IMG/VR virus record: IMGVR_UViG_2609459794_000003
Origin: a virus
Taxonomy: Duplodnaviria > Heunggongvirae > Uroviricota > Caudoviricetes
Direction: 5' to 3' (one strand)
DNA: 19,084 nt
Positions 1 to 18,620 of this stretch are shown piece after piece (position 1 is the stretch's first letter; every line of letters begins with the position of its first letter). Below the pieces are notes generated by a model, which ran no database searches, had not been told where the DNA came from, and saw only the letters and a program-made list of their open reading frames with translations. The position numbers were made by a program, and so were the translations under genes.

Positions 1-42
1 TGAACCGCCCCGGGTTTCCTGGAGAGTGTTTTATCTGTGAAC

Positions 43-933
43 TCAGGCTGCCAGATCATCGTTTCCGATGGAAGCATAATAAGCTTTTTCTGCTTCTGCC
101 GGAGGAGTATGGCCCAGCCTTTCCAGCAATCGTCGATTGTTATACCAGTCCACCCACGTGAGTGTGGCCAGTTCCACTTCTGCACGGTTTTTCCAGCTCT
201 TACGGTGTATTACCTCCGCTTTGTAAAGACCATTGATGCTCTCCGCCATCGCGTTGTCATACGAGTCGCCTGTACTTCCTGTTGATGCCAGTAATCCGGC
301 TTCCTTAAGCCGCTGTGTGTAGGCCAGCGATACATACTGAGAACCTTTATCACTGTGATGGACCGTGCCGGACGGTCGACGGGCCCATAACGCCTGCTCC
401 AGTGCATCCAGCACGAATGTCGTTTCCATGGACGATGAGACCCGCCACCCCACGATGTATCCGGCAAACACATCAATGATGAACGCCACATAGACGAAGC
501 CCCGCCATGTGCTGACGTAAGTAAAATCAGCCACCCACAGCTGGTCAGGTCGTTCTGCCACGAACTGACGGTTTACGCGGTCGCCTGCGGCAACGGCTTT
601 CCGGCTGATGGTCGTACGGACCTTTTTACCCCGGAGAACACCGGCAAGTCCCATAACCGCCATGAGACGTGCCACAGTGCATCTGGCCACTCTGATACCT
701 TCCCGTAACAACTGACGCCAGACTTTACGCACACCGTATACCTTGTGATTTTCATCGTATACGCGCTGTATCTCTTTCTTCAGCCAGTCATCGCGCTGCG
801 CACGGGCACTGCGTTTATCCGGATGATGTCGCTGTTGCTGACAGTGGTAATACGTTGACGGGGCAATATGTAGTTCACTGCATACCGGTCCGACCCCGTA
901 CAGCTTACGCAGCTTATCCAGCAGTGGCATCAC
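43..933 (-). CDS. IS3-family transposase OrfB (DDE catalytic domain), probably expressed as an OrfAB fusion by -1 frameshift
   Basis: 296-aa ORF with retroviral-integrase-like DDE region (...WVADFTYV..., ...HHSDKGSQY..., ...[15 protein letters not shown]...). It overlaps orfA by a few nt in the -1 frame next to an A-rich stretch (GGAAAAAG). Confidence 0.9.
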
Positions 934-1256
934 TTTTTCCAGAGGCGGTCGAACTCCGCCTTCGCAAAATAAGCGGAAGCCTGGCGAAGGATATCGTTAC
1001 TGCGGCGCAGTTCACGATTTTCACGTTCCAGCTCTTTCAGACGCTGACGTTCAGCGGTGGTGAGCCCTCCATCACCGCCCCCGGTATCCCGCTCATGCTG
1101 GCGAACCCAGACACGCAGAGTCTCCGGCGTACAGCCAATCTTTGGAGCAATGGAACAAATTGTCGCCCATTGTGAGTCATATTCGCTCTGACTTTCCAGA
1201 ACCATACGGACTGCCCGTTGACGGACTTCGGGGGAAAAACGAGTATTTTTAGTCAT
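930..1256 (-). CDS. IS3-family transposase OrfA (HTH DNA-binding subunit)
   Basis: 108-aa [22 protein letters not shown]...[36 protein letters not shown], typical IS3-family OrfA with HTH and leucine-zipper-like C-terminus. It ends ...TGGAAAAAGTGA, overlapping the orfB start. Confidence 0.9.
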
Positions 1257-1307
1257 CCTGTTTACCTCTTTCTCAGGAAGTTTAGTCTCCAGGATTCCCG
1301 GGGCGGT

Positions 1308-1443
1308 TCAGTAAGGAGATTTTGGCTTGGTTGGATCTTTACGTGTTGCCTGTAGGCGGCCTGTTCGTATCCAGTTGGTGGCGGTTGGTCTGGATATCTT
1401 AAGAAACTGACAGGCCTCATCGAGTGTGAGGCTGTATGATTCC
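1308..1443 (-). pseudogene. xis: Xis/AlpA-type excisionase, 3' end truncated by the IS insertion
   Basis: 45-aa ORF MESYSLTLDEACQFLKISRPTATNWIRTGRLQATRKDPTKPKSPY with a GAGGT RBS 5-6 nt upstream. The HTH resembles phage excisionases, and the stop codon TGA is the reverse complement of the last three bases of the IS (1308-1310). Intact homologues are usually 60-80 aa. Confidence 0.55.
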
Positions 1444-1695
1444 ATGGTTACCTCTGCTTTTTGAACGCATGTCACGTAACTTCTTAATGTGTTCTGCCGT
1501 TTCGATCTCTTCTGCTATCCGATCTGCATCAGCTTTATTCACAGGTTCAAAGTCATGATTAAAGCGGAACATGCTGGCGATACATGTTCTGCCTTTTCGG
1601 ATGTAGTGAACTTTGTTGTGGGTAGAACGCAGGATTTTGCAGGGAGTGCCGTGGTGGTCGACGTACCAGGTGTTAGGGTAAATCACTCTGAACAT
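1417..1695 (-). CDS. hypothetical phage protein (92 aa)
   Basis: ORF in the leftward early operon; its start overlaps the end of the upstream 110-aa gene and its end overlaps the xis start by 26 nt. No family recognised. Confidence 0.4.
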   Translation of the reverse strand: MFRVIYPNTWYVDHHGTPCKILRSTHNKVHYIRKGRTCIASMFRFNHDFEPVNKADADRIAEEIETAEHIKKLRDMRSKSRGNHGIIQPHTR

Positions 1696-2005
1696 TCTTG
1701 ACCTTGTGTTGTGCGGATTGATATTCAGTGCTGATATTCACCTTTATAGCGAACACCTTTACCGGTTTATCGCCAAAGTGTGGATGTGTGATTGTCTTCA
1801 CTTCATATCCGTCATACGGAACATCAATTCTGCGACTGGAATCGTCGCGCTTCGGATATCCCTTTGTGATAATCAGGCGGTCATACTCCCGGAACATAAT
1901 TCGCTTATTCCAATAGTCATTACACAGGCGATACTCCTCCGTTTTCTCTCCGCGAATCATGGCATCGAAAAATTCACTTTTAACAGGAAGTTGCAGGTTA
2001 GCCAT
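1673..2005 (-). CDS. hypothetical phage protein (110 aa), possibly PUA/ASCH-like
   Basis: ORF MANLQLPVKSEFFDAMIRGEKTEEYR...; its ATG overlaps the TGA of the upstream TraR-like gene (TGATG). Domain assignment is a weak guess from the N-terminal motif. Confidence 0.45.
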   Translation of the reverse strand: MANLQLPVKSEFFDAMIRGEKTEEYRLCNDYWNKRIMFREYDRLIITKGYPKRDDSSRRIDVPYDGYEVKTITHPHFGDKPVKVFAIKVNISTEYQSAQHKVKNVQSDLP

Positions 2006-2226
2006 CACTTAATCCCCCTTTGTTTGCGGATAAGCTCCAGATCTTGCTGGCAACTGGCGCAAGTTCGACAACCCTGAACGGCTAGGCGTCTTCGTTCATC
2101 TATCGGATCACCACACTCACAACAATGAGTGGCAGATACAGCTAGGTGGTTCAGGCGGCGCATTTTTATTGCTGTGTTGCGCTGTAATTCTTCTATTTCT
2201 GATGCTGAATCAATGATGTCTGCCAT
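2005..2226 (-). CDS. TraR/DksA-family C4 zinc-finger protein (phage-encoded)
   Basis: 73-aa ORF with the CxxC...CxxC motif (CCECGDPIDERRRLAVQGCRTCASCQ) typical of TraR/DksA-like proteins, a family that includes lambda orf73-type proteins. Confidence 0.8.
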   Translation of the reverse strand: MADIIDSASEIEELQRNTAIKMRRLNHLAVSATHCCECGDPIDERRRLAVQGCRTCASCQQDLELIRKQRGIK

Positions 2227-2279
2227 CTTCCATTAATCCCTGAATTGTTGGTTAATACGCTTGAGGGTGAATGCGAACA

Positions 2280-2303
2280 ATAAAAAAGGAGCCTGTAGCT
2301 CCC
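2280..2303 (-). terminator. putative intrinsic terminator inside the leftward early operon
   Basis: On the minus strand: GGAGC-tacag-GCTCC followed by TTTTTTATT (plus-strand stem arms at 2288-2292 and 2298-2302, A-run at 2282-2287). Confidence 0.5.
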
Positions 2304-2324
2304 TGAGGATTTTGCTTTTCATGT

Positions 2325-2540
2325 TCACCGTTCCTTAAAGGCGCCGTTTAACATACCGATTGCCAGACTTAAATGAGTCGGTGTGAATCCCATCAGCGTT
2401 ACCGTTTCGCGGTGCTTCTTCAGTACGCTACGGCAAATGTCATCGACGTTTTTATCCGGAAACTGCTGTCTGGTTTTTTTGATTTCAGCATTAGCCTGAC
2501 GGGCAATGCTGCGAAGGGCGTTTTCCTGCTGAGGTGTCAT
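2325..2540 (-). CDS. hypothetical phage protein (71 aa)
   Basis: ORF MTPQQENALRSIARQANAEIKK...; its ATG overlaps the TGA of the upstream 27-codon ORF (ATGA coupling). The listed 104-aa ORF is this gene plus an upstream extension in the same frame. Confidence 0.5.
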   Translation of the reverse strand: MTPQQENALRSIARQANAEIKKTRQQFPDKNVDDICRSVLKKHRETVTLMGFTPTHLSLAIGMLNGAFKER

Positions 2541-2620
2541 TGAATAAGTCCCATGTCGGCAAGCATAAGCACACAAAATATGAAGCCCGCTGCCAGAAAA
2601 ATGCATTCCGTGGTTGTCAT
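2537..2620 (-). CDS. putative 27-aa hydrophobic (single transmembrane-like) peptide
   Basis: ATG ACA ACC ACG GAA TGC ATT TTT CTG GCA GCG GGC TTC ATA TTT TGT GTG CTT ATG CTT GCC GAC ATG GGA CTT ATT CAA TGA = MTTTECIFLAAGFIFCVLMLADMGLIQ. GGGAGG sits 4 nt upstream of the ATG, and the ATG overlaps the methyltransferase stop while its own stop overlaps the next ATG (ATGA at both ends). Confidence 0.35.
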   Translation of the reverse strand: MTTTECIFLAAGFIFCVLMLADMGLIQ

Positions 2621-3174
2621 GCAGCCTCCCGACGGGCAAGAATCCTTGAGCCGAACGCCATCAACTCTCCACGATCAACGGTCGTAAAGTGGCAGTGTGT
2701 ACGGGGGTATGCGTGCCAGATAATGAGCATCGAGCCTTTATTATTTCCACTGACGGGTTTCTCAGTGAGTGGGTTAATAAATGCCAGTCGTCCTGCCGTG
2801 ATGAATCTGACCTCACTGGCGGTTTGTATCGCTTCATGAAACCATCCGACAGATGTGTCAGCAGGCAATAACATTACACATCCCACACTACTGAATTTGT
2901 TTTCAGTGGCTGCCTTTTTCACAAAAGGGGAAATATTGCTGTATGGTGGATTCAACCAGACATAACCAGAGGCATATCCCATTGCTTCAGGCCATGAAGT
3001 GGTTAATGTGTTCTGCTCCTGTGAGATAAAAAGCCGACATAGTCGGTTTTTTTCGCTGGCGGCAGCATCAAGTTGAAAAACGAACTCTGCATTAAGCGCA
3101 GCAAAAATCTCTGGTGGTGTGCGCCAGCTGTCGCGATGTTCGGCAGGAGTATTGCTTCCGGTGAAATCAGTCAT
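2617..3174 (-). CDS. phage-type DNA N6-adenine methyltransferase (Dam family)
   Basis: 185-aa ORF with the NPPY catalytic motif (GYVWLNPPYSN) and the N-terminal ...DSWRTPPEIFAALNAEF... pattern typical of small phage Dam methyltransferases. Confidence 0.85.
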   Translation of the reverse strand: MTDFTGSNTPAEHRDSWRTPPEIFAALNAEFVFQLDAAASEKNRLCRLFISQEQNTLTTSWPEAMGYASGYVWLNPPYSNISPFVKKAATENKFSSVGCVMLLPADTSVGWFHEAIQTASEVRFITAGRLAFINPLTEKPVSGNNKGSMLIIWHAYPRTHCHFTTVDRGELMAFGSRILARREAA

Positions 3175-3328
3175 ACAGCCCCCGTTTATTATTTATCTCC
3201 TCAGCCAGCCGCTGTGCTTTCAGGGGATTTCGGATAACAGAAAGGCCGGGAAATATCCAGCCTCGCTTTGTAACGGAGTAGACGAAAGTGATCGCGCCTA
3301 CCCGGATATTATCGTGAGGATGCTTCAT
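3167..3328 (-). CDS. possible small ORF (53 aa) bridging exo and the methyltransferase
   Basis: ATG overlaps the exo stop (ATGA) and the last codons overlap the methyltransferase start (ATGACTGA). Translation [53 protein letters not shown]. No homology recognised; it is below the 60-aa cutoff of the ORF track. Confidence 0.3.
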
Positions 3329-3920
3329 CGCCATTGCTCCCCAAATACAAAACCAATTTCAGCCAGTGCCTCGTCCATTTTTTCGATGAACTCCGGCACC
3401 ATCTCGTCAAAACTCGCCATGTACTTTTCATCCTGCTCAATCACGACATAATGCAGGCCTTCACGCTTCATCCGCGGGTCATAGTTGGCAAAGTACCAGG
3501 CATCTTTTCGTGCCACCCACATGCTGTACTGCACCTGGGCCATGTAAGCCGATTTTATGGCTTCGAAACCACCGAGCCGGAACTTCATGAAATCCCGGGA
3601 GGTAAACGGGCATTTCAGTTCAAGGCCGTTGCCATCACTGCATAAACCATCGGGAGAGCAGGCGGTGCGCATACTTTCGTCGCGATAGATGATCGGGGAT
3701 TCAATAACATTCACGCCGGAAGTGAACTCAAACAGGGTTCTGGCGTCGTTCTCGTACTGTTTTCCCCAGGCCACTTCTTTCCTGAGCGGGGCTTTGCTAT
3801 CACGTTGTGAACTTCTGAAGCGGTGATGACGCCGAGCCGTAATTTGTGCCATGCATCATCCCCCTGTTCGACAGCTCTCACGTCGATCCCGGTACGCTGC
3901 AGGATAATGTCCGGTATCAT
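3325..3920 (-). pseudogene. exo: lambda-type exonuclease (Red alpha) disrupted by an ~85-nt internal deletion and frameshift
   Basis: Two overlapping ORFs in different frames together match lambda Exo as recalled: N-terminal [51 protein letters not shown] (3711..3920) and C-terminal ...[19 protein letters not shown]...FVFGEQWR (3325..3852). The span is 596 nt versus 681 nt expected for a 226-aa Exo; the junction is at about 3767-3773. Confidence 0.8.
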
Positions 3921-4702
3921 GCTGCCACCTTCTGCTCAGTGGCTTTCTGTTTCAGGAATCCAAGAGCTTTCACTGCTTCGGCCTGTGTCAGTTCTGACGA
4001 TGCGCGAATGTCGCGGCGAAATATCTGGGAACAGAGCGGCAATAAGTCGTCATCCCATGTTTTATCCAGGGCGATCAGCAGAGTGTTAATCTCCTGCATG
4101 GTTTCATCGTTAACCGGAGTGATGTCGCGTTCTGGCTGACGTTCTGCAGTGTATGCAGTATTTTCGACAATGCGCTCGGCTTCATCTTTGTCATAGATAC
4201 CAGCAAATCCGAAGGCCAGACGGGCACACTGAATCATGGCTTTATGCCGTAACATACGTTTGGGATGCGACTGCCACGGCCCCGTGATTTCTCTGCCTTC
4301 GCGGGTTTTGAATGGTTCGCGGCGGCATTCATCCATCCATTCGGTAACGCAGATCGGATGATTACGGTCCTTGCGGTAAATCCGGCATGTACAGGATTCA
4401 TTGTCCTGCTCAAAGTCCATGCCATCAAACTGCTGGTTTTCATTGATGATGCGGGACCAGCCATCAACGCCCACCACCGGAACAATGCCGTTCTGCTTAT
4501 CAGGGAAGGCGTAAATTTCTTTCGTCCACGGATTAAGGCCGTACTGGTTGGCGACGATCAGCAATGCGATGAACTGCGCATCGCTGGCATCACCTTTAAA
4601 TGCCGTCTGGCGAAGAGTGGTGATCAGTTCCTGTGGGTCGACAGAATCCATGCCGACACGTTCAGCCAGCTTCCCTGCCAGCGTTGCGAGTGCTGTACTC
4701 AT
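3917..4702 (-). CDS. bet: Red beta single-strand annealing protein (lambda Bet)
   Basis: 261-aa [40 protein letters not shown]... matching lambda Bet along its full length as recalled; its stop overlaps the exo ATG (ATGA). Confidence 0.95.
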
Positions 4703-4707
4703 CCGTT

Positions 4708-5004
4708 TTATACCTCTGAATCAATATCAACCTGGTGGTGAGCAATGGTTTCAACCATGTACCGGATGTGTTCTGCCATGCGCTCCTGAAACTCAACATC
4801 GTCATCAAACGCACGGGTAATGGCTTTTTTGCTGGCCCCGTGGCGTTGCAAATGATCGATGCATAGCGATTCAAACAGGTGCTGGGGCAGGCCTTTTTCC
4901 ATGTCGTCTGCCAGTTCTGCCTCTTTCTCTTCACGGGCGATCTGCTGGTAGTGACGCGCCCAGCTCTGAGCCTCAAGACGATCCTGAATGTAATAAGCGT
5001 TCAT
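4708..5004 (-). CDS. gam: Gam, host RecBCD nuclease inhibitor (98-aa short form)
   Basis: [60 protein letters not shown]... matches the lambda Gam core. AGGAGG lies 6 nt upstream of the ATG, and an in-frame stop about 20 codons upstream precludes the long lambda-style N-terminal extension. Confidence 0.9.
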
Positions 5005-5079
5005 GGCTGACCTCCTGAAAATGGCTGTGAAAATATCGCCCGCGAAATGCCAGGCTGATTAGGAAAACAGGAAAGGGGA

Positions 5080-5370
5080 TTAGTGATTCAGGCCGTTACC
5101 GCGTCCGTCGAGAAAAACTTCCACGAGCAAATCACGGGTATAAGTGCGCTCGATGCCGCGATGCAGATAAAGCCGTCCGCGTAAATTAGCTGATGCAGTC
5201 CAGGTACCATCTTTGTGTTTGACCAGCATTCCTGGCATGACCGCACCTCGATTAACGGTCTGCGTTCCATAATGTTGATGAACCATAAAAACTCCTGCCC
5301 GTAAGCTGGGCTGCTGAACATATAGAGACTTCTGCGCGTATTCAGGCGGTGGATGGCCGCCGGTTGTCAT
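5080..5370 (-). CDS. hypothetical protein in the kil/cIII position (96 aa); coding status uncertain
   Basis: Only sizeable ORF between pL and gam; GC-rich, moderate RBS (GAGG about 11 nt upstream). An alternative 77-aa frame (5088..5321) exists, so this call is weak. Confidence 0.35.
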
Positions 5371-5559
5371 AACTAAGCCGCCTCGTTGAAGCGACTAAGG
5401 TATGAAATGTTGAGTTAATTTCAGCTGGTCACACCGACGTTCACGCGTCCGTTTCACCCCTCGCACTCCCCGAAGCCTGCTGAAATTCAAACTGCGGATC
5501 TAAGCGGTCATCGCAACGGTGAATCAGGTAGTTGCCGTATCGTTGTGTTGTTGCGATGA

Positions 5560-5625
5560 ACTTATTTAAAACTATAGTTGTTTTATCGTCAACAACAAAA
5601 GTTGTTTTATTGGTTGTTTTAGATA
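5560..5625 (-). promoter_or_regulatory. putative pL promoter with OL operator half-sites
   Basis: On the minus strand: -35 TTGACG (plus 5587-5592), 17-nt spacer, -10 TTAAAT (plus 5564-5569). It is flanked by repeated GTTGTT / AACAAC motifs and is nearly identical in layout to the pR region. Confidence 0.5.
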
Positions 5626-5727
5626 TAACTGGTTGTATTTAGGATGGATTTATTTTGTGACTTGAATCGCATAGCGATAACTGAAGCGAGGTTATGGTGG
5701 TTTTTTTAACGGTGTGTGATGAGGGGA

Positions 5728-5758
5728 GGGCAAAAGAAAACCCGGCACGGTGACCGGG
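5728..5758 (-). terminator. putative intrinsic terminator downstream of cI
   Basis: On the minus strand: CCCGG-ucaccgug-CCGGG followed by TTTTCTTTTG, about 120 nt downstream of the cI stop. Confidence 0.5.
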
Positions 5759-5879
5759 ATTCTTACGCCGTTAGGTAAAGATATTATTGCGGTGGCTTAA
5801 TATTACTACCTAGAGCAAAGATAGGAATTAGTTCTTTACTGAATGAGCACAATGCCCAGTTGATAATTTTTAATTGGTA

Positions 5880-6569
5880 CTACCCATGCTTCCTATATGT
5901 CTGCGGCATGCTCCCAATAACCTTACCGAAGATGAACACCCGGTTCATCTCGTCTTTCTCGATCGGGTCCCACGGTGAGTAGCTTTTGTTATCAGAGATG
6001 ACCAGCAGCTTATCCTTCATCATTTGCAGGCGCTTTACATGGGCTGTGTCGTCGTACAGAAACGCATAGATACCATCACCGTCGAAAGATTTAACTGTGA
6101 TATCAACGAACAGCAGATCACCTGGTTCGATCGTTCCTGACATGCTGTCACCACGCACGTTAATGATGCGGATATTTTCCGCCTTCCTACCATCGAACAT
6201 GTGACGAGCATCGTCAAACGAGTACTCAACCGAGCGTAGAACTTCTACAAACTCACGGTTGATGACTCCCGGCCCAGCACTGACTTCTATATCAAGAACG
6301 TCAATCTTGAAGTATTTGGAATGGCTGACAGTTGATTGTATTGGTTGCACTGTACTGTCTGACATATTTCCAACGCCAGAAGATAACCATTCTGCGCGCA
6401 CACCCAAAGCGTTCGCGATCTCCACGATTTTAGTTGTTTGATTAGCTTTCCCTGTTTCGATTTTCTGAATAGCAGCCTGGCTAACCCCGACCAAATCCCC
6501 AAGCGCCTTTTGTGTAAGGCCTCGCGCTAATCTGGCTTCTTTAAGTCTTTCTGAGAGTGTTGTTTTCAT
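5880..6569 (-). CDS. cI: CI-type prophage repressor (N-terminal HTH plus C-terminal S24 LexA-like autopeptidase)
   Basis: HTH LTQKALGDLVGVSQAAIQKIETGK; Ala-Gly cleavage-site candidate (EVSAGPG); catalytic Ser in VRGDSMSGT and Lys in AHVKRL. The start is taken at MKTTLSERL (ATG 6567-6569); the listed ORF extends 22 codons further upstream. Confidence 0.9.
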   Translation of the reverse strand: MKTTLSERLKEARLARGLTQKALGDLVGVSQAAIQKIETGKANQTTKIVEIANALGVRAEWLSSGVGNMSDSTVQPIQSTVSHSKYFKIDVLDIEVSAGPGVINREFVEVLRSVEYSFDDARHMFDGRKAENIRIINVRGDSMSGTIEPGDLLFVDITVKSFDGDGIYAFLYDDTAHVKRLQMMKDKLLVISDNKSYSPWDPIEKDEMNRVFIFGKVIGSMPQTYRKHG

Positions 6570-6580
6570 ATTCCAAATGT

Positions 6581-6672
6581 ACAACCAAGGTTTTATTCCA
6601 TCAAACGAAAATGGTTGTTGACTAAAAACAACCATAGTTTTAATCTTGATTCAAATTAACCACGGAGGTTGT
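6581..6672 (+). promoter_or_regulatory. pR promoter and OR operator region (divergent cI/cro control)
   Basis: -35 TTGACT (6618-6623), 17-nt spacer, -10 TAATCT (6641-6646). The perfect 9-7-9 palindrome ATGGTTGTT-GACTAAA-AACAACCAT (6611-6635) overlaps the -35; further GGTTGTT / ACAACC half-sites sit at about 6581-6587 and 6666-6672. Confidence 0.6.
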
Positions 6673-6673
6673 T

Positions 6674-6904
6674 ATGAACCCAGCTATCAAAACAGCGATC
6701 AATATCGTTGGTTCACAAAAGAAACTGGGCGCTGCTTGCGAAGTTTCACAGCAGGCCGTCTATAAGTGGCTTCACAACAAAGCAAAGGTATCCCCTGAAC
6801 ATGTCGGCAGCATTGTTACGGCTACTGGTGGAGTAGTGAAGGCATACCAGATTCGCCCGGATCTTCCGAAGTTGTTTCCACACACCGAAAAGAACGCAGC
6901 TTAA
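6674..6904 (+). CDS. cro: Cro-like HTH repressor
   Basis: 76-aa ORF divergent from cI with HTH GSQKKLGAACEVSQQAVYKW and GGAGG RBS at 6664-6668. Confidence 0.8.
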   Translation: MNPAIKTAINIVGSQKKLGAACEVSQQAVYKWLHNKAKVSPEHVGSIVTATGGVVKAYQIRPDLPKLFPHTEKNAA

Positions 6905-6916
6905 ATTTCCATTTCA

Positions 6917-6929
6917 CGCTCTTTAACAA
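6917..6929 (+). promoter_or_regulatory. boxA-like antitermination element (nutR position)
   Basis: CGCTCTTTAACAA immediately downstream of cro closely matches the rrn/lambdoid boxA consensus (GCTCTTTAACAA). No convincing boxB hairpin follows. Confidence 0.45.
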
Positions 6930-6973
6930 TAAGCAATCAACTTAACAGTCAATTCAAACTAAAGGAGTCAATT

Positions 6974-7513
6974 ATGCAACCACTTACATACCAACAGACT
7001 AGCGGATTTAGCCCGACTGCGGTGATAAATCGTTCTCAAACAAAACAGGTGCCAGGCCACGAAAAAATCCGTGATGCCGTCCGCGCCTGGTCGGCTGTAG
7101 ATAATCAGGATGTCGTTGCCACACTCATTGTGAATGAGTATCGGGAGCAGGGCGGCGGCACCATCGATTTCCCTGATGATGTCAGCCGTGCACGCCAGAA
7201 GCTGTTCCGCTTCCTCGATAACAAATTCGATTCTGAAAAATACCGAAATAACGTGCGTGAACTGACCCCGGCAATTCTGGCGGTACTACCGCTGGAATAT
7301 CGCGGTTACCTGGTTGAGCAGGATAGCTTCATGGCTAGGTTGGCTGAAATGGAAAAGGAACTCAGTGAGGCAAAACAGGCTGTCATTCTCAACGCACCAC
7401 GCCACCAGAAACTGAAGGAAATTAGTGAAGGTATTGTGTCGATGTTTCGTGTGGACCCAGATCTGGCTGGTCCATTGATGGCGATGGTTACTACCATGCT
7501 GGGGGCGATATGA
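6974..7513 (+). CDS. YdaT-like protein in the cII position
   Basis: 179-aa ORF with AAGGAG RBS. Motifs EYREQGGG and LTPAILAVLPLEYR resemble the Rac prophage YdaT family as recalled. Confidence 0.55.
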   Translation: MQPLTYQQTSGFSPTAVINRSQTKQVPGHEKIRDAVRAWSAVDNQDVVATLIVNEYREQGGGTIDFPDDVSRARQKLFRFLDNKFDSEKYRNNVRELTPAILAVLPLEYRGYLVEQDSFMARLAEMEKELSEAKQAVILNAPRHQKLKEISEGIVSMFRVDPDLAGPLMAMVTTMLGAI

Positions 7514-7599
7514 CAGGTTCAGAAATGGCGAAAGCCGGTCTGCTGGAACAGAACCGACTTTCAGGTGCAAATCGTAACACACTCATTGCGGGAGGAATT

Positions 7600-8529
7600 A
7601 TGGCAAACACTGCTGAGATATTCAATTTTCCAGTGCCGGATGCGGCACAAAAGGAGCCGCGCGTGGCAGATCTCGATGATGGTTATACGCGCATTGCAAA
7701 TGAGTTGCTGGAAGCTGTGATGCTGGCCGGATTAACACAGCACCAGCTTCTGGTCTTCCTGGCTGTCATGCGCAAAACATATGGCTTTAATAAAAAACTG
7801 GATTGGGTGAGCAACGAGCAACTGTCCGAATTGACCGGGATATTGCCGCACAAGTGTTCTGCTGCAAAAAGTGTTCTGGTAAAGCGTGGGATTTTGATTC
7901 AGAGCGGGCGGAATATCGGTATTAATAATGTGGTCAGTGAATGGTCAACATTACCCGAATCAGGTAAGAAAAATAAAGTTTACCTGAAAGAGGTAAATAT
8001 ACCTGAATCAGGTAAGAAAAGTTTACCCAAATCAGGTAAAGGCGTTTACCCGAATCAGGTAAACACAAAAGACAAACTAACAAAAGACAATATAAAACCT
8101 TTTTCGTCCGAGAATTCTGGCGAATCCTCTGACCAGCCAGAAAACGATCTTCCTGTGGTGAAACCGGATGCTGCAATTCAGAGCGGCAGCAAGTGGGGGA
8201 CAGCAGAAGACCTGACCGCCGCAGAGTGGATGTTTGACATGGTGAAGACTATCGCACCATCAGCCAGAAAACCGAATTTTGCTGGGTGGGCTAACGATAT
8301 CCGCCTGATGCGTGAACGTGACGGACGTAACCACCGCGACATGTGCGTGCTGTTCCGCTGGGCATGCCAGGACAACTTCTGGTCCGGTAACGTGCTAAGT
8401 CCGGCCAAACTCCGCGACAAGTGGACCCAACTCGAAATTAACCGTAACAAGCAACAGGCAGGCGTGATAGCCAGCAAACCAAAACTCGACCTGACAAACA
8501 CAGACTGGATTTACGGGGTGGATCTATGA
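7600..8529 (+). CDS. O: replication initiator O (lambda-O-like; divergent N-terminal iteron-binding domain, lambda-like C-terminus)
   Basis: GGAGG RBS at 7591-7595, then MANTAEIFNF...RVADLDDGYTRIANELLEAV...; C-terminus ...KPKLDLTNTDWIYGVDL as in lambda O. The listed ORF starts 30 codons upstream at 7510. Confidence 0.9.
   Translation: MANTAEIFNFPVPDAAQKEPRVADLDDGYTRIANELLEAVMLAGLTQHQLLVFLAVMRKTYGFNKKLDWVSNEQLSELTGILPHKCSAAKSVLVKRGILIQSGRNIGINNVVSEWSTLPESGKKNKVYLKEVNIPESGKKSLPKSGKGVYPNQVNTKDKLTKDNIKPFSSENSGESSDQPENDLPVVKPDAAIQSGSKWGTAEDLTAAEWMFDMVKTIAPSARKPNFAGWANDIRLMRERDGRNHRDMCVLFRWACQDNFWSGNVLSPAKLRDKWTQLEINRNKQQAGVIASKPKLDLTNTDWIYGVDL
7951..8105. repeat. origin of replication: four palindromic iterons plus an AT-rich segment inside the O gene
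   Basis: Direct repeats ACC(C/T)(G/A)AATCAGGTAA at 7951-7968, 7999-8016, 8022-8040 and 8045-8064, each an internal palindrome (ACCTGA-A-TCAGGT), with a degenerate copy at 7979-7996. They are followed by the A-rich tract ACACAAAAGACAAACTAACAAAAGACAATATAAAACC. Confidence 0.75.
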
Positions 8530-9227
8530 AAAACATCGCCGCACAGATGGTTAACTTTGACCGTGAGCAGATGCGTCGGATCGCCAACAACATGCCGGAA
8601 AAGTACGACGAAAAGCCGCAGGTACAGCAGGTAGCGCAGATCATCAACGGTGTGTTCAGCCAGTTACTGGCAACTTTCCCGGCGAGCCTGGCTAACCGGG
8701 ACCAGAACGAACTGAACGAAATCCGCCGCCAGTGGGTTCTGGCTTTCCGGGAAAACGGGATCACCACGATGGAACAGGTTAACGCAGGAATGCGCGTAGC
8801 CCGTCGGCAGAATCGACCATTCCTGCCATCACCCGGGCAGTTTGTTGCCTGGTGCCGGGAAGAAGCATCCGTTACCGCCGGGCTGCCAAACGCCAGCGAG
8901 CTGGTTGATATGGTTTACGAGTATTGCCGGAAACGTGGCCTGTATCCGGATGCAGAGTCTTATCCGTGGAAATCAAACGCGCACTACTGGCTGGTTACCA
9001 ACCTGTATCAGAACATGCGGGCCAATGCGCTGACTGATGCGGAATTACGGCGCAAGGCTGCCGATGAACTGGCCTGTATGACAGCGCGAATTAACCGTGA
9101 TGAGGCGATACCTGAACCAGTAAAACAACTTCCTGTCATGGGCGGTAGACCTCTAAATCGTGCACAGGCTCTGGCGAAGATCGCAGAAATCAAAGCTAAG
9201 TTTGGGCTGAAAGGAGCAAGTGTATGA
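8526..9227 (+). CDS. P: replication protein P (DnaB helicase loader), lambda-type
   Basis: 233-aa ORF MKNIAAQMVNFDREQMRRIANNMPEKYDEKPQVQQVAQIINGVFSQLLATF... matching lambda P as recalled; its start overlaps the O stop. Confidence 0.95.
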   Translation: MKNIAAQMVNFDREQMRRIANNMPEKYDEKPQVQQVAQIINGVFSQLLATFPASLANRDQNELNEIRRQWVLAFRENGITTMEQVNAGMRVARRQNRPFLPSPGQFVAWCREEASVTAGLPNASELVDMVYEYCRKRGLYPDAESYPWKSNAHYWLVTNLYQNMRANALTDAELRRKAADELACMTARINRDEAIPEPVKQLPVMGGRPLNRAQALAKIAEIKAKFGLKGASV

Positions 9228-9526
9228 CGGGCAAAGAGGCAATTATTCATTACCTGGGGACGCATAAGAGCTTCTGTGCACAGGACGTTGCCGCGGTAAC
9301 AGGCGCAACCGTAACCAGCATAAATCAGGCTGCGGCTAAAATGGCGCGGGCAGGAATCCTGGTCGTTGATGGTAAGGTCTGGCGAACGGTGTATTACCGG
9401 TTCGCTACCAGAGAAGAACGGGAAGGAAAGGTGAGCACGAATCTGATTTTTAAGGAGTGTCGCCAGAGTGCCGCGATGAAACGGGTATTGAGGGTATATA
9501 AAAGAACATCAATGGGTACACAATGA
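9224..9526 (+). CDS. ren: Ren-like protein (Rex-exclusion resistance), C-terminus divergent
   Basis: MTGKEAIIHYLGTHKSFCAQDVAAVTGATVTSINQAAAKMARAGILVVDGKVWRTVYYRFATREEREGK... matches lambda Ren as recalled; the last ~10 residues differ where the low-GC island begins. Confidence 0.8.
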   Translation: MTGKEAIIHYLGTHKSFCAQDVAAVTGATVTSINQAAAKMARAGILVVDGKVWRTVYYRFATREEREGKVSTNLIFKECRQSAAMKRVLRVYKRTSMGTQ

Positions 9527-9593
9527 TGAAACAGGTGAGTTGAGTTCAAACTGTAGTACAATTCTCTCCAGTTTGAACAGGAAAGAATATGCT

Positions 9594-9926
9594 ATGAACC
9601 CTTATATTTATCTTGGTGGTGCAATACTTGCAGAGGTCATTGGTACAACCTTAATGAAGTTTTCAGAAGGTTTTACACGGTTATGGCCATCTGTTGGTAC
9701 AATTATTTGTTATTGTGCATCATTCTGGTTATTAGCTCAGACGCTGGCTTATATTCCTACAGGGATTGCTTATGCTATCTGGTCAGGAGTCGGTATTGTC
9801 CTGATTAGCTTACTGTCATGGGGACTTTTCGGCCAACGGCTGGACCTGCCAGCCATTATAGGCATGATGTTGATTTGTGCCGGTGTGTTGGTTATTAATT
9901 TATTGTCACGAAGCACACCACATTAA
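9594..9926 (+). CDS. emrE: small multidrug resistance (SMR) efflux transporter EmrE
   Basis: 110-aa, 4-TM ORF MNPYIYLGGAILAEVIGTTLMKFSEGFTRLWPSVGTIICYCASFWLLAQTLAYIPTGIAYAIWSG... with the conserved membrane-embedded Glu in the first helix (AEVIGT). Confidence 0.95.
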   Translation: MNPYIYLGGAILAEVIGTTLMKFSEGFTRLWPSVGTIICYCASFWLLAQTLAYIPTGIAYAIWSGVGIVLISLLSWGLFGQRLDLPAIIGMMLICAGVLVINLLSRSTPH

Positions 9927-9956
9927 AATAATTTGTTTCTAAACGACTAAAATATG

Positions 9957-9996
9957 GAGGCTCTTATATTTATATGAGCCTCGTTTTATGCTTTTT
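9957..9996 (+). terminator. putative terminator after emrE
   Basis: GAGGCTC-ttatatttatat-GAGCCTC (7-bp stem) followed by GTTTTATGCTTTTT. Confidence 0.5.
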
Positions 9997-10180
9997 GTTA
10001 ATGTCTTTATTTTTTATGTATTCTTTTGTGCTTTCAAGATTATGGCGTAAGAAAATTGCAATACGATTATTGTTGTATATTCAAGATAATGTGACCTTAA
10101 TTGTCTTTTTAAATAAAAATTAAACAAAAATTATATCCCACCACTAAGGTTTATAAAAGCATACGTTAGCAGGTGTCACC

Positions 10181-11707
10181 ATGAAAAAAGCCATAGCATA
10201 TATGCGATTTTCATCACCAGGTCAGATGTCTGGTGACTCATTAAACCGACAGAGAAGACTTATTGCTGAATGGTTAAAGGTAAATAGTGATTATTATCTT
10301 GATACCATAACATATGAAGATTTAGGATTAAGTGCATTCAAAGGAAAGCATGCACAATCAGGAGCTTTTTCGGAATTTTTAGATGCTATAGAGCATGGTT
10401 ATATATTGCCAGGAACTACATTGTTAGTTGAAAGTCTGGACAGACTTTCAAGAGAAAAAGTCGGTGAAGCGATTGAACGTCTGAAATTGATTTTGAATCA
10501 CGGTATTGATGTTATAACTCTTTGCGACAATACAGTCTATAATATTGACTCTTTGAATGAGCCATATTCATTAATAAAAGCCATACTTATAGCACAAAGG
10601 GCAAATGAAGAAAGCGAGATAAAGTCAAGTCGGGTTAAATTATCATGGAAGAAAAAACGGCAGGATGCACTGGAATCAGGTACGATTATGACGGCGTCTT
10701 GTCCGAGATGGCTCTCCTTAGATGACAAAAGAACGGCTTTTGTTCCAGACCCCGACAGGGTGAAAACTATTGAGCTAATTTTTAAACTCAGGATGGAAAG
10801 GCGCTCATTGAATGCAATAGCCAAGTATTTAAATGATCATGCTGTAAAGAATTTCTCAGGAAAAGAAAGTGCATGGGGACCTTCTGTAATTGAAAAATTA
10901 TTAGCGAATAAAGCTCTGATAGGTATATGCGTACCTTCATATCGTGCAAGAGGGAAAGGGATAAGTGAAATCGCTGGCTATTATCCCAGAGTCATATCAG
11001 ATGATTTGTTTTACGCTGTACAGGAAATTCGGTTGGCACCTTTTGGTATTAGCAATAGTAGCAAGAATCCTATGCTAATAAATCTACTTCGAACAGTTAT
11101 GAAGTGTGAGGCTTGTGGTAATACCATGATTGTTCATGCGGTATCTGGAAGTTTGCATGGCTATTATGTTTGTCCGATGAGAAGATTACATCGATGTGAC
11201 AGGCCATCAATAAAAAGAGATTTGGTTGATTATAATATCATTAATGAATTGCTTTTTAATTGTAGCAAAATTCAACCAGTTGAAAACAAGAAAGATGCTA
11301 ATGAAACTTTAGAGTTAAAAATTATTGAGCTTCAGATGAAAATTAATAATTTAATCGTTGCATTGTCTGTCGCGCCTGAAGTTACCGCTATAGCAGAGAA
11401 AATAAGACTATTAGATAAGGAATTACGAAGGGCTTCGGTATCATTGAAAACTTTGAAGAGTAAAGGTGTAAATTCATTCAGTGATTTTTATGCTATTGAC
11501 TTAACCAGTAAAAATGGACGAGAGTTATGCCGTACACTTGCCTATAAAACATTCGAAAAAATCATAATTAATACGGATAATAAAACCTGTGATATCTATT
11601 TTATGAATGGCATTGTTTTTAAACACTATCCTTTAATGAAAGTAATATCCGCCCAGCAGGCGATAAGTGCTCTCAAATATATGGTTGATGGTGAGATTTA
11701 TTTCTAA
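10181..11707 (+). CDS. ybcK: large serine recombinase (resolvase/invertase catalytic domain, recombinase domain, zinc ribbon)
   Basis: 508-aa ORF with N-terminal serine-recombinase motif (AIAYMRFSSPGQ...SLNRQ), Cys cluster CEACGN...YYVCPMRRLHRCD and a C-terminal coiled-coil-like region. Low-GC gene. Confidence 0.9.
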   Translation: MKKAIAYMRFSSPGQMSGDSLNRQRRLIAEWLKVNSDYYLDTITYEDLGLSAFKGKHAQSGAFSEFLDAIEHGYILPGTTLLVESLDRLSREKVGEAIERLKLILNHGIDVITLCDNTVYNIDSLNEPYSLIKAILIAQRANEESEIKSSRVKLSWKKKRQDALESGTIMTASCPRWLSLDDKRTAFVPDPDRVKTIELIFKLRMERRSLNAIAKYLNDHAVKNFSGKESAWGPSVIEKLLANKALIGICVPSYRARGKGISEIAGYYPRVISDDLFYAVQEIRLAPFGISNSSKNPMLINLLRTVMKCEACGNTMIVHAVSGSLHGYYVCPMRRLHRCDRPSIKRDLVDYNIINELLFNCSKIQPVENKKDANETLELKIIELQMKINNLIVALSVAPEVTAIAEKIRLLDKELRRASVSLKTLKSKGVNSFSDFYAIDLTSKNGRELCRTLAYKTFEKIIINTDNKTCDIYFMNGIVFKHYPLMKVISAQQAISALKYMVDGEIYF

Positions 11708-12171
11708 ATAATGATCTCGGATTTTAAGTTATGCTATGGTGATAAAGTGCAAGACAGAATTAATTATCTTTGACGAAACTTAATGGGTAATTACTTTGTT
11801 TGCTCCCACAAGCGAGTTTTGTACGGCTGTATTGGGGTAGTAAATGAGCTATACAATCTTAATCATTTGTTAGGTGAGAACTCTTGGTCGCAGATTCAAA
11901 TACTGAAAATACGTGACAAATTATTATGAGCAAAATGGTGTATGTCACGTATTTTGAATGGTAGGTTAAAAAATAACACCGACTTTCGTAGGTATTACTA
12001 ATAATAAAGCAGAGTTTTTAGATAGTATCAATGTGCTTTGTGTATATTGTGGCAAATAATTGGGTTGGGGGTACAATTGTGATTGCTTTTGCATAAACAT
12101 TGCGCCTTTATGCATAATGAGATAAAGGAATATCAAATAAAATAACGATAGGTCATAACAAAGAGGTTTTT

Positions 12172-12723
12172 ATGAAAACACTTATCGTTTCAACTGTATT
12201 GGCATTCATAACATTTTCTGCGCAGGCTGCAGCATTTCAGGTCACTAGTAATGAAATAAAAACAGGAGAGCAACTTACAACGTCTCATGTCTTTTCTGGA
12301 TTTGGGTGTGAAGGTGGTAATACATCGCCCTCATTAACCTGGTCTGGTGTTCCTGAAGGTACCAAAAGCTTTGCCGTAACTGTATATGATCCAGATGCAC
12401 CTACAGGCAGTGGTTGGTGGCATTGGACTGTTGTTAATATTCCAGCAACAATAACATATTTGCCCGTTGATGCAGGGAGACGTGATGGAACAAAACTGCC
12501 GACTGGTGCTGTTCAAGGCCGAAATGATTTTGGCTATGCTGGGTTTGGTGGCGCATGTCCTCCTAAAGGAGATAAACCACATCATTACCAGTTTAAAGTA
12601 TGGGCTCTAAAAACTGAAAAGATTCCTGTAGATTCTAACTCCAGCGGAGCGTTAGTTGGTTATATGCTTAATGCTAATAAAATCGCAACCGCTGAGATAA
12701 CACCAGTTTATGAGATAAAGTAG
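12172..12723 (+). CDS. ybcL: secreted PEBP/RKIP-family protein (YbcL-like)
   Basis: 183-aa ORF with signal peptide MKTLIVSTVLAFITFSAQAAA and PEBP-type motifs (YDPDAP, GxHHY). Confidence 0.85.
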   Translation: MKTLIVSTVLAFITFSAQAAAFQVTSNEIKTGEQLTTSHVFSGFGCEGGNTSPSLTWSGVPEGTKSFAVTVYDPDAPTGSGWWHWTVVNIPATITYLPVDAGRRDGTKLPTGAVQGRNDFGYAGFGGACPPKGDKPHHYQFKVWALKTEKIPVDSNSSGALVGYMLNANKIATAEITPVYEIK

Positions 12724-12732
12724 GGTGAGAGT

Positions 12733-13530
12733 ATGCTGGCAAGAGGTAAGACTAACTTAAAGATCGAAGAAATACGGATGCATAAACATCATGAGATTCA
12801 TAGGGTTAAGCCTCTTATGCCAGCTTTGTGTCGTATCCGTCAGGGAAAGAAAGTTATCAATTGGGAGACGCATACTTTAACTGTTGATAATAATCAAATA
12901 ATATTATTTCCTTGTGGTTATGAATTTTATATTGAGAATTATCCTGAAGCAGGGCTTTATCTTGCAGAAATGCTTTACTTACCCATTGATTTAATTGAGA
13001 GTTTCCAAAAACTTTATACGGTAACTGATCAAATACGTAACAAAACAAGTTTCTTTTTACCTCAGAATCCTGAGTTAATATATTGTTGGGAGCAACTAAA
13101 AACATCTGTTTCCCGAGGCTTCTCAACTAAAATTCAGGAGCACTTAGCAATGGGCGTTCTACTTTCGTTAGGAGTGAATCATGTTAATCATTTACTTTTA
13201 TCATATAGTAAACAATCATTGATAAGTCGTTGTTATAACCTGCTGCTATCCGAACCCGGCACAAAATGGACAGCAAACAAGGTTGCTCGATATCTCTACA
13301 TTTCTGTTTCTACATTACATCGCCGTCTAGCAAGCGAGGGGGTAAGTTTCCAAAGTATACTGGACGATGTGAGGTTAAATAATGCGTTGTCTGCTATACA
13401 AACGACGGTAAAACCTATAAGCGAGATTGCCAGAGAAAATGGTTATAAGTGTCCTTCTCGTTTTACTGAAAGATTTCATAATCGTTTTAATATAACACCA
13501 AGAGAGATAAGAAAAGCTTCCAGAGAGTAA
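12733..13530 (+). CDS. ybcM: AraC/XylS-family transcriptional regulator (YbcM-like)
   Basis: 265-aa ORF with C-terminal AraC-type double HTH (...[40 protein letters not shown]...[30 protein letters not shown]...). Confidence 0.8.
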
Positions 13531-13646
13531 AAGTGTTTTAAGAAGGAGCAATTCTATCGATTTTGATTTTGGGAAATCAACACGGCATAATTATGTCACC
13601 GGAGCCTGAACAACTCCGGTGACTTCTGCGCTAAACGGGGACGTTT

Positions 13647-13748
13647 ATGCGCACATACAATCCAAACTCTCTTCTCCCTTCACAGATGCAGAAATGCACC
13701 TGCAATTCTTTGCATCTAGCGTTTGACCTCTGCGGAGGTGAAGCGTGA
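13647..13748 (+). CDS. ylcH: possible 33-aa small protein (YlcH-like)
   Basis: ATG at 13647 to TGA at 13746-13748 encodes [33 protein letters not shown]; its stop overlaps the ybcN GTG start. The assignment rests on position and length only. Confidence 0.35.
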
Positions 13749-14200
13749 ACCTCTCACAAGACGGCATCAAATTACATCGCGGCAACTTCACCGCTATCGG
13801 TCGGCAGATCCAGCCTTATCTGGAGGAGGGCAAATGCTTTCGCATGGTGCTTAAACCGTGGCGTGAGAAACGCAGTCTTTCCCAGAATGCACTCAGCCAC
13901 ATGTGGTACAGCGAAATCAGTGAATACCTCATCAGCAGGGGTAAAACGTTCGCCACTCCAGCTTGGGTAAAAGATGCTCTCAAACACACATATCTCGGTT
14001 ATGAAACCAAAGACCTGGTTGATGTCGTAACCGGTGATATCACCACTATCCAGTCGTTACGCCATACCTCCGATCTTGATACCGGAGAGATGTATGTCTT
14101 CCTGTGTAAGGTTGAAGCCTGGGCGGTGAATATTGGCTGCCACCTGACTATTCCGCAGAGCTGCGAGTTCCAGCTGCTCCGCGACAAGCAGGAGGCGTAA
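13745..14200 (+). CDS. ybcN: NinB-family protein (YbcN-like)
   Basis: 151-aa ORF with GTG start; nin-region position upstream of ninE; sequence matches DLP12 YbcN as recalled. Confidence 0.8.
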
Positions 14201-14370
14201 TGGCTACACCGCTTATTCGTGTCATGAACGGACACATCTACAGAGTATCAAATCGTCGTAAGCGTAAGCCTGAGCTGAAGCCATCCGAAATACCAACACT
14301 GCTCGGATATACCGCTAGCCTGGTTGATAAAAAATGGTTGCGACTGGCAGCAAGGAGGAATCATGGCTGA
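14200..14370 (+). CDS. ninE: NinE-like small protein
   Basis: 56-aa [59 protein letters not shown]; its ATG overlaps the ybcN stop (TAATG). Below the ORF-track cutoff. Confidence 0.7.
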   Translation: MATPLIRVMNGHIYRVSNRRKRKPELKPSEIPTLLGYTASLVDKKWLRLAARRNHG

Positions 14371-14653
14371 TTTGAGAAAAGCAGCGCGTGGTCGGGAATG
14401 CCAGGTAAGAATCCCTGGCGTATGTAATGGCAATTCTGAAACGTCTGTACTGGCACATATCCGGCTGGCTGGATTGTGCGGTACCGGTATCAAACCGCCA
14501 GACCTGATTGCCACCATTGCATGTTCTGCCTGCCACGACGAAATCGACCGCCGCACACATTTTGTCGATGCTGCATATGCAAAAGAATGCGCGCTGGAAG
14601 GTATGGCGAGAACACAGGTTATCTGGCTGAAAGAGGGGGTTATTAAGGCGTGA
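14363..14653 (+). CDS. ybcO: YbcO-like nin-region protein (Cys-rich, putative nuclease)
   Basis: 96-aa [45 protein letters not shown]...CSACHDEID; GGAGG RBS at 14354-14358. Confidence 0.8.
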
Positions 14654-15012
14654 ATACCTACAGTATCACATTACCCTGGCCTCCGAGCAATAATCGCTAT
14701 TACCGCCATAATCGCGGGCGCACGCACGTCAGTGCAGAGGGGCAGGCATACCGCGATAACGTCGCCCGAATCATTAAAAACGCAATGCTGGATATCGGCC
14801 TGGCTATGCCTGTGAAAATCCGCATTGAGTGCCACATGCCGGATCGCCGTAGCCGTGACCTGGATAATCTGCAAAAAGCCGCTTTTGACGCACTCACTAA
14901 AGCAGGTTTCTGGCTGGATGATGCTCAGGTCGTTGATTACCGCGTTGTGAAGATGCCTGTTACCAAAGGTGGGAGGCTGGAACTGACCATCACCGAAATG
15001 GGGAATGAATGA
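14650..15012 (+). CDS. rusA: RusA Holliday-junction resolvase
   Basis: 120-aa [53 protein letters not shown]...[15 protein letters not shown]... matching RusA as recalled; GTG start overlapping the ybcO stop. Confidence 0.95.
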
Positions 15013-15149
15013 TGTTTGAGTTTAATATGGCAGAACTTCTTCGCCACCGCTGGGGGCGTCTGCGCTTATATCGTTTCCCCGGCTCTGTTTTGACCGATTA
15101 CCGAATACTGAAGAATTACGCCAAAACACTGACAGGAGCAGGAGTATGA
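15009..15149 (+). CDS. ylcG: YlcG-like small protein (46 aa)
   Basis: [46 protein letters not shown]; its start overlaps the rusA stop. Below the ORF-track cutoff. Confidence 0.55.
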
Positions 15150-15234
15150 AGTCAGAGATAACAATCAACTAATACTGTTTTGTTGATTTTTGCTTGTAAT
15201 TGGCGTTCTGGTCTGAGTTTTGTGGAGTAAGTTG

Positions 15235-15612
15235 ATGCGTGATATTCAGATGGTTCTTGAGCGTTGGGGAGCGTGGGCGGCTAATAATCATGAAGATGTG
15301 ACCTGGTCGTCCATTGCCGCCGGTTTTAAGGGATTAATTCCTTCAAAAGTAAAATCTCGCCCGCAATGTTGTGACGATGACGCGATGATCATTTGCGGGT
15401 GCATGGCCCGTCTGAAAAAGAACAACAGCGATTTGCATGATTTATTGGTGGACTATTATGTCGGCGGCATGACTTTTATGGCGCTTGCACGTAAGCATGG
15501 GCGATCTGATTGTTGGGTTGGCAGGATGCTCCAGAAAGCTGAGGGCGTAGTGGAGGGTATGCTGATGGTGTTGGATCTCCGATTGGAGATGGATGCTGAT
15601 TGTTCAAAATAA
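15235..15612 (+). CDS. quuD: late-gene antiterminator Q (QuuD / phage 82/21 type)
   Basis: [62 protein letters not shown]...; Cys-rich zinc-binding region; located immediately upstream of a terminator, as for Q/qut/tR'. Confidence 0.85.
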
Positions 15613-15711
15613 TTAAAGGAAAAGTTGCTGTCTGATTCTCATTAGTCTAACATTTTAAATGTTGGAATCGCAACGTAGTTATTATCATATAACAGCTTGT
15701 TTCCTGATTTA

Positions 15712-15740
15712 GCCAGCCTCCCCAAAGGCTGGTTTTTTTC
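15712..15740 (+). terminator. tR'-like intrinsic terminator downstream of Q, preceded by a putative late promoter region
   Basis: CCAGCC-tccccaaa-GGCTGG followed by TTTTTTT. Candidate PR' upstream: TTGCTG (15625-15630), 17-nt spacer, TAACAT (15648-15653). Confidence 0.6.
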
Positions 15741-15767
15741 TAATAAGTATTATTTCGGGTAGGGATT

Positions 15768-16292: not shown

Positions 16293-16484
16293 AATAAATC
16301 CTGTACTTTTGATAGTTGAGAGTAAGTATGAAAGATAGATGATTACGACCGATCACTTAAAGAACTTTCATACTATATTAGGAATAGTCCATAACAGAAA
16401 AATTGTCAGTGATGACGCCAGAAAGGCAATTTAGTCCGTGCACTACACAGTTTATGTGTTAATGAATTAGTCAAGGGGGAGAAT

Positions 16485-18527: not shown

Positions 18528-18588
18528 CGTGATGCGTTTTAATGATTTTGTAATTTTCGTATTTGATAATTGTATGATGCTTTCAGCT

Positions 18589-18620
18589 ACGCCAGAATAA
18601 TCGCTGGCGTTTTTCTTTTT
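18589..18620 (+). terminator. putative intrinsic terminator after the AppY-like gene
   Basis: ACGCCAG-aataatcg-CTGGCGT followed by TTTTTCTTTTT. Confidence 0.6.

Follow-up and report, generated by a model that had tools for sequence, protein, structure and literature searches.

Probable loss of exo to a recent 85-bp deletion between short direct repeats in a DLP12-type prophage of Escherichia coli

Introduction

In phage lambda, the Red module consists of three collinear genes, gam, bet and exo. The stretch of viral DNA analysed here (19,084 nucleotides, IMG/VR record IMGVR_UViG_2609459794_000003, hereafter referred to as the window) carries this module with an exo locus that is too short, raising the question of what happened to the exonuclease gene, and whether the change has any consequence beyond its loss. 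A first-pass annotation, made from the letters alone, had proposed that exo was inactivated by a deletion of about 85 nt between short direct repeats, leaving bet and gam intact. I examined this proposal by comparison with lambda, with related prophages and with public assemblies. The most probable account, in which I have high confidence, is that exo of a DLP12-type prophage became a pseudogene through one recent 85-bp deletion between two copies of TGGCCTG, most likely as neutral decay.

Anatomy of the exo deletion

The locus and its junction are as follows.

3325–3920, minus strand: exo pseudogene (lambda exonuclease / YqaJ family), 596 nt against 681, with a single 85-nt gap in alignments
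3767–3773, minus strand: deletion junction, with the single retained copy of TGGCCTG (CAGGCCA on the plus strand), located by alignments and a repeat finder

Nucleotide alignment to the exo genes of VT2-Sakai, lambda and the E. coli KH_005 prophage gives one gap of exactly 85 nt (681 to 596 nt) and no other indel, in agreement with the length estimated in the first-pass annotation, which had named the alignment to lambda exo as its check. The retained 596 nt are identical to the intact KH_005 gene, and ~97% identical to lambda exo. That the locus is exo by descent follows from this nucleotide homology to lambda exo and from its kept position in the series bet-exo-orf60a, with RecT and DUF1317 genes as neighbours. 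A megablast search of 50,697 phage records returned 252 matches to window positions 3200–4100, and in the best 40 of these 252 the 901 query bases align in two pieces to a stretch of 986 bases in the record; the window is therefore short of 85 bases that are present in each of these 40 records. The opposite polarity, under which all other phages would carry an 85-nt insertion, was rejected, since the 681-nt form encodes the crystallised 226-amino acid enzyme (PDB 1AVQ, 3SM4 and 6M9K), and is the form found in the best 40 of the 252 phage records and in ~3,040 complete genomes.

In all three intact references (lambda, VT2-Sakai and KH_005), TGGCCTG flanks the missing segment on both sides, the context in gene sense being GAAGAAG-TGGCCTG-ACATG … GCAC-TGGCCTG-GGGAAAA. 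The repeat finder places the KH_005 pair, read as CAGGCCA, at positions 8457–8463 and 8542–8548 of that locus (L002), a spacing of 85. Both the repeat that had been inferred from the window and the junction proposed at about 3767–3773 are thus found exactly where expected. Deletion length, repeat spacing and junction are mutually consistent, with the pattern of a short-direct-repeat deletion: a repeat present twice in the parent and once at the junction, and a deletion as long as the spacing.

Within the KH_005 exo, the same finder returns, besides the TGGCCTG pair, four direct-repeat pairs of 7 nt or more and at most 150 nt apart; as such, the TGGCCTG pair is therefore unremarkable and no special hotspot. 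The diagnostic point is that both deletion endpoints fall within one repeat pair. Under random endpoints, I estimate the probability of a 7-nt microhomology at well under 1 in 1,000 (~4^-7 times a few registers). When the deleted segment and its flanks were folded as single-stranded DNA, they folded no better than shuffled sequences (z = -0.65), with no hairpin favouring the deletion, which gives no support for a structure-assisted slippage hotspot.

The leftward operon

The genes surrounding exo are listed below.

3917–4702, minus strand: bet (Red-beta, RecT-family annealing protein), intact, 261 amino acids, 260/261 against lambda Bet, Pfam RecT at full length
4708–5004, minus strand: gam (RecBCD inhibitor), intact in its 98-amino acid form, Pfam Gam 1–98 of 98
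5080–5370, minus strand: kil-like cell-division inhibitor ORF, upstream in the same leftward operon, with PF27398 KilR found on the identical 96-amino acid product of four other contigs (L003–L006)
5880–6635, minus strand: CI-like repressor (HTH and S24 peptidase), with Pfam HTH_3 and Peptidase_S24 on the identical product, annotated S24 family peptidase in KH_005
3167–3334, minus strand: DUF1317 gene (lambda orf60a homologue), intact, directly downstream of exo, Pfam DUF1317 with E 1.8e-33

The order exo-bet-gam-kil-repressor is that of the lambda leftward operon, and the DUF1317 gene occupies the position of orf60a in lambda. The collinearity of the lambda Red module is therefore kept, with gam and bet intact, as had been claimed, and exo broken. 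The bet DNA is identical to that of KH_005 (WP_000100847.1), and the gam DNA to the KH_005 gene annotated as a Gam family protein; 96 of the 98 Gam residues are identical to residues 41–138 of the annotated lambda Gam. In a lysogen, the CI-like repressor presumably silences this leftward operon, gam-bet-exo included, by analogy with pL control in lambda.

Several further features of this region were observed. For gam, only the 98-amino acid form is open, and an AGGAGG precedes its ATG by 6 nt; the 138-amino acid ORF of the lambda and VT2-Sakai annotations is missing from the window, because the upstream kil region differs. At the kil-like site, KH_005 has a shorter ORF annotated as a phage-encoded cell division inhibitor. 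Downstream, the DUF1317 gene adjoins a Dam-type N6-adenine methyltransferase gene (2617–3174, Pfam Dam, E 7.6e-56), which stands where lambda has orf61/orf63. Between the kil-like gene and the repressor (5371–5879) there is no N-like antiterminator ORF, and ~500 nt hold no ORF longer than 36 amino acids. The isolated phages PhiR34_1 and Turner share these 509 nt at 99.4–99.6% identity; the annotation of PhiR34_1 leaves the interval empty and that of Turner places a single hypothetical protein in it, with no named gene in either. Rfam, scanned over the whole window, has no match in this interval. One might speculate that early antitermination in this phage group does not need N and may rely on a cis-acting RNA like that of HK022.

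Prophage context and age of the deletion

On its gene content, the element can be assigned to the DLP12-type lambdoid prophages of E. coli, an already known cryptic prophage type, with the collinear series ren-emrE-ylcJ-ybcK-ybcL-ybcM-ybcN-ninE-ybcO-rusA-ylcG-Q-essD-rrrD. According to the KH_005 annotation, the full order begins with intD at the tRNA-Arg gene argU, an xis-like gene, DUF4222, a TraR/DksA-like gene, a Dam methylase and DUF1317, continues with exo, bet, gam, kil, the repressor, a cro-like gene (YdaS), YdaT, O and P, and ends in the series from ren to Q and, after it, essD and rrrD. The argU site next to intD is visible in the relatives KH_005 and K-12; the window itself begins inside the prophage, at the end of an insertion sequence (IS). 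Against the DLP12 prophage of K-12, it is 99.7% identical over 2,967 nt.

Among its relatives, the window as a whole comes closest to the argU prophage of KH_005 (NZ_CM174518.1): window positions 1311–19084 match it at 99.9%, and the alignment falls into two pieces that part precisely at the deletion. Over these 17.8 kb, the two differ only by the exo deletion, one SNP (2143) and one 11-nt indel (10108/10109), and window positions 3767–19084 equal the annotated KH_005 prophage save for this indel. KH_005 has the same 596 nt of exo, with no substitution, but also the 85 nt and both repeat copies, which give an uninterrupted gene for 226 amino acids (WP_069905188.1). Given this near-zero divergence from the intact allele, the deletion is recent.

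The two small differences were also located. The SNP (T in the window, C in KH_005) lies inside the TraR/DksA-like zinc-finger gene (2005–2226). The indel, at the 3' end of ylcJ, consists of 11 extra bases in KH_005 (TAAATAAAAAT) between TTAAATA direct repeats; K-12 DLP12 aligns to the window without a gap at this site and thus shares its state, whereas in KH_005 a small duplication seems to have altered the C-terminus of YlcJ.

The left end of the window carries a second lesion.

1–1310, minus strand: complete IS3-family insertion sequence (IS629/IS1203-like), 1,310 bp, abutting the prophage left arm

This element has 25-nt terminal inverted repeats (1–25 and 1286–1310), OrfA and OrfB ORFs, and an ALIL frameshift pseudoknot at 859–975 (116 bits), which is the only Rfam match in the whole window. 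Homology to KH_005, where intD adjoins the tRNA-Arg gene instead, ends at position 1311. The same limit holds for L007, a separately assembled contig that has the exo deletion, an uninterrupted left arm with an integrase gene, and no IS. The IS cuts an excisionase-like HTH ORF (1308–1475) after …KPKSPY; in L007 the same ORF runs on, followed by the integrase. The IS is a second lesion of the same prophage, and since L007 has the deletion without the IS, the two are independent; the exo deletion is probably the older. Of two complete genomes (H81 and H82) that seemingly cover the window from its first base, H81 does not share this arrangement, its cover being one of joined pieces, because its IS sits in rusA/ylcG and not in the xis-like gene. 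In annotation, the prophage is best described as Red-defective and excision-compromised.

The frequency of the allele was assessed with 41-mer or 32-mer junction probes, whose arms are too short to match intact genes. The junction was found in 0 of 5,426 complete E. coli genomes and 0 of 50,697 phage records (INPHARED), and was likewise absent from the GTDB species representatives (one genome per species), IMG/VR and the JGI metagenomes as searched with these probes; these negative results speak to rarity only. The exo flanks are matched by 3,194 of the 5,426 complete genomes, and ~3,040 show an undeleted, two-piece cover of the 141-nt junction region of lambda-type exo. By these comparisons, the deletion is of very recent evolutionary origin and limited to a rare lineage.

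This bears on the possibility that the loss of exo was adaptive, with host or prophage keeping Bet and Gam as a domesticated pair for ssDNA annealing and RecBCD modulation. In lambda, mutants in exo remain viable, Bet can support oligonucleotide recombination by itself, and Gam needs no partner to inhibit RecBCD; the remaining Bet and Gam could therefore still act if expressed. Both genes are intact and encode proteins almost identical to the functional lambda proteins, and the allele persists in a much-sampled lineage in two configurations, with the IS at the xis-like gene (window) or without it (L007). However, the deletion is so recent, with exo free of further substitutions and a single SNP over 17.8 kb relative to a prophage with intact exo, that the intactness of bet and gam carries no information on selection. 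The allele is also missing from every complete genome searched, many of which retain the undeleted region, its genes sit behind a CI-like repressor, and K-12 DLP12 lost the whole of bet and gam along with most of exo, which shows no trend to keep them. I found no sign of selection for a state with Bet and Gam only, in the window or in the relatives compared, and consider adaptive loss very unlikely. Very improbable, too, is the bolder version, in which a clone of E. coli turned a DLP12-type prophage into a host-beneficial module of Bet and Gam, the exonuclease having been removed as harmful or as redundant with host nucleases; if true, such a module might serve the host by, for instance, annealing ssDNA at replication forks or modulating RecBCD.

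The first-pass annotation had described the outcome as a Red system without its cognate exonuclease. This stands for the gene content, with exo broken and bet and gam intact, but not for a functioning two-gene system, as the genes belong to a decaying and presumably repressed prophage. There is likewise no indication that selection preserves bet and gam.

Reading frames and residues of the broken gene

The preferred reading, that of a recent deletion followed by neutral decay, supposes that the locus no longer yields an exonuclease. Two ORFs are present.

3711–3920, minus strand: 69-amino acid ORF, Exo residues 1–51 (…SGKKWP) followed by 18 out-of-frame residues and a stop, from the ORF list and protein alignment
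3325–3852, minus strand: 175-amino acid ORF, 27 out-of-frame residues followed by Exo residues 79–226 (AWGKQYEND…QWR), from the ORF list and protein alignment

As 85 equals 3 x 28 + 1, translation leaves the native frame beyond codon 51. The earlier description of an N-terminal part of 51 residues and a C-terminal part of ~146 in different frames, read at the junction as KKWP and EVAWGKQ, is borne out, the second part being 148 native residues, from AWGKQ onwards, that align to lambda Exo without gaps; a continuous in-frame gene, which would have contradicted it, is not what the alignment shows. The start codon of the 69-amino acid ORF overlaps the bet stop (ATGA), as in lambda. A Pfam search of this ORF returned no match, and an exact-product look-up found its product nowhere on record; gene callers evidently call only the 175-amino acid ORF. 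For the latter, the Pfam YqaJ match (E 4.8e-22) covers profile positions 47–149 of 150 only, and the N-terminal third of the domain is absent. Its ATG at 3852 is preceded, 6 nt upstream, by a Shine-Dalgarno-like GGGGGA, and on this basis the ORF could be translated. The out-of-frame ATG and the sequence upstream of it are also present in all intact exo genes, where, as read from the alignment, the same +1-frame ORF terminates at a TGA inside TGGCCTGAC; this stop was lost with the deletion.

The residues of known role are distributed unevenly over the two ORFs. Mutagenesis, as summarised in PMC7496540, assigns Trp24 and Arg28 to the 5'-phosphate pocket, Leu78 to the hydrophobic wedge, Met53 and Lys76 to the central channel, and Glu85, Asp119 and Lys131 to catalysis. 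By protein alignment (lambda numbering), Trp24, Arg28, Arg45 and Lys49 are on the 69-amino acid ORF, residues 52–78, including Met53, Lys76 and Leu78, are deleted, and the catalytic Glu85, Asp119 and Lys131 are encoded, but only in the shifted frame of the 175-amino acid ORF. In place of one continuous ORF of ~226 amino acids over the whole YqaJ domain, as a functional Exo, a toroidal trimer of the YqaJ / PD-(D/E)XK family, requires, there are thus two partial ones, and the polypeptide with the active site has none of the pocket, wedge and channel residues. From this arrangement, the exonuclease function is predicted to be lost.

A working nuclease could nonetheless be imagined, either through ribosomal frameshifting at the junction or as an active 175-amino acid product, perhaps together with the 69-amino acid peptide. 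The three catalytic residues and the significant YqaJ match are retained, the larger ORF has its GGGGGA, and the smaller one has the native bet-coupled start. Yet even a restored frame would be without 28 residues, among them Leu78, Lys76 and Met53, which are key to the wedge and channel (PMC7496540), and the N-terminal third with the phosphate pocket is on a separate peptide. Moreover, the sole Rfam match in the window is the pseudoknot of the IS, and the internal ATG with its upstream sequence, being shared with all intact genes, was not made for the purpose. A functional nuclease from this locus is therefore highly improbable, and I suggest labelling it as an exo pseudogene (frameshifted, 85-bp deletion), rather than as two hypothetical proteins or a 'YqaJ family protein'.

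Occurrence in independent assemblies

The exact 175-amino acid product, which spans the junction, was found on nine contigs, for which six places are listed: the Logan assemblies SRR32364731, ERR9384763, ERR11737939, SRR20630406 and ERR4457265, and the ENA assembly ERZ27229552. All six loci fetched (L003–L008) have an identical 41-nt junction, absent from the intact references, and are 99.92–100% identical to the window over 2.3–10.7 kb, with 0–2 SNPs each. One junction-carrying contig was seen in eight samples. The same junction in six separate assemblies, together with these small SNP differences, shows a deletion allele that is real, heritable and slightly diversified.

That the missing 85 nt reflect faulty sequencing or assembly of a single genome with an intact gene, the other way in which the initial proposal might have failed, is barely credible: the junction is indeed missing from the complete genomes and other collections searched with the probes, and the window resembles a short-read contig beginning exactly at an IS end, but six independent contigs from different runs share the junction, their SNPs show that they are not copies of one file, and k-mer assembly yields no junction k-mer that the reads do not contain.

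Five independent Logan contigs with the deletion (L003, L004, L005, L006 and L008) break off at window position 3180 or 3202, where the DUF1317 and Dam genes overlap, which suggests that the sequence leftwards is repeated in those genomes, for example in a second lambdoid prophage. The contigs run unbroken through exo, which makes a second lambda-type exo copy in those five genomes unlikely and suggests that they hold none.

Discussion

I propose that two copies of TGGCCTG, 85 bp apart, were joined with retention of one copy, and the junction suggests replication slippage, or another RecA-independent short-homology deletion, as the likely process. Translation coupled to bet would then yield only a 69-amino acid peptide with the 5'-phosphate pocket residues Trp24 and Arg28, and the catalytic part could be made only from the fortuitous internal ATG at 3852, as a 175-amino acid product without the first 78 residues. 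No active toroidal exonuclease would be formed, and Red-type resection of dsDNA ends would be lost. The lesion is most likely neutral decay, given that a CI-like repressor stands in front of the operon and that an IS has also struck this prophage, where selection would be relaxed.

Beyond annotation and its use as a lineage marker, the finding has little importance, and represents an ordinary pseudogenisation of a prophage gene. The junction sequence is a clean clone-specific marker, absent from the complete genomes searched and present in several public read sets. The locus also offers a neat natural case of a microhomology deletion of very recent date, for which a near-identical intact allele is available in KH_005.

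Compared with lambda exo (NP_040616.1), the locus is alike in its ~97% nucleotide identity over 596 nt, the ATGA overlap with bet and the orf60a (DUF1317) homologue that comes next, and the rest of the Red module is close as well, with bet 99% and gam 98% identical. It differs in the 85 missing nt (codons 52–79, in part), which break the frame and make a product of 226 amino acids impossible.

The lacI deletion hotspots are reportedly the classic case of deletions between short direct repeats. The window deletion resembles them, since the parent has the repeat twice, the junction retains it once and the length equals the spacing, and nothing sets it apart; no stabilising hairpin was detected in the deleted segment.

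The most informative comparison is with the DLP12 prophage of K-12. In both, exo was inactivated by deletion in the course of prophage decay, and the two are closely related, with 97% identity over the 3' part of exo (the K-12 exoD pseudogene, b0539) and 99.7% over emrE-ylcJ-ybcK. K-12 DLP12 (L010) positions 2073–2378 correspond to window positions 3299–3604, and 2377–2775 to 8916–9314. The K-12 exoD and peaD pseudogenes are thus the two sides of one ~5.3-kb deletion relative to the window prophage, which took the 5' 316 nt of exo (window 3605–3920), bet, gam, kil, the repressor/immunity region, O and part of P, and left only a 264-nt exoD remnant. In the window, by contrast, just 85 nt of exo are gone, and the whole early region is still there. 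The window is an earlier decay stage of the same prophage family, and illustrates the stepwise decay of DLP12 at a point intermediate between a complete early region and the loss of 5.3 kb in K-12.
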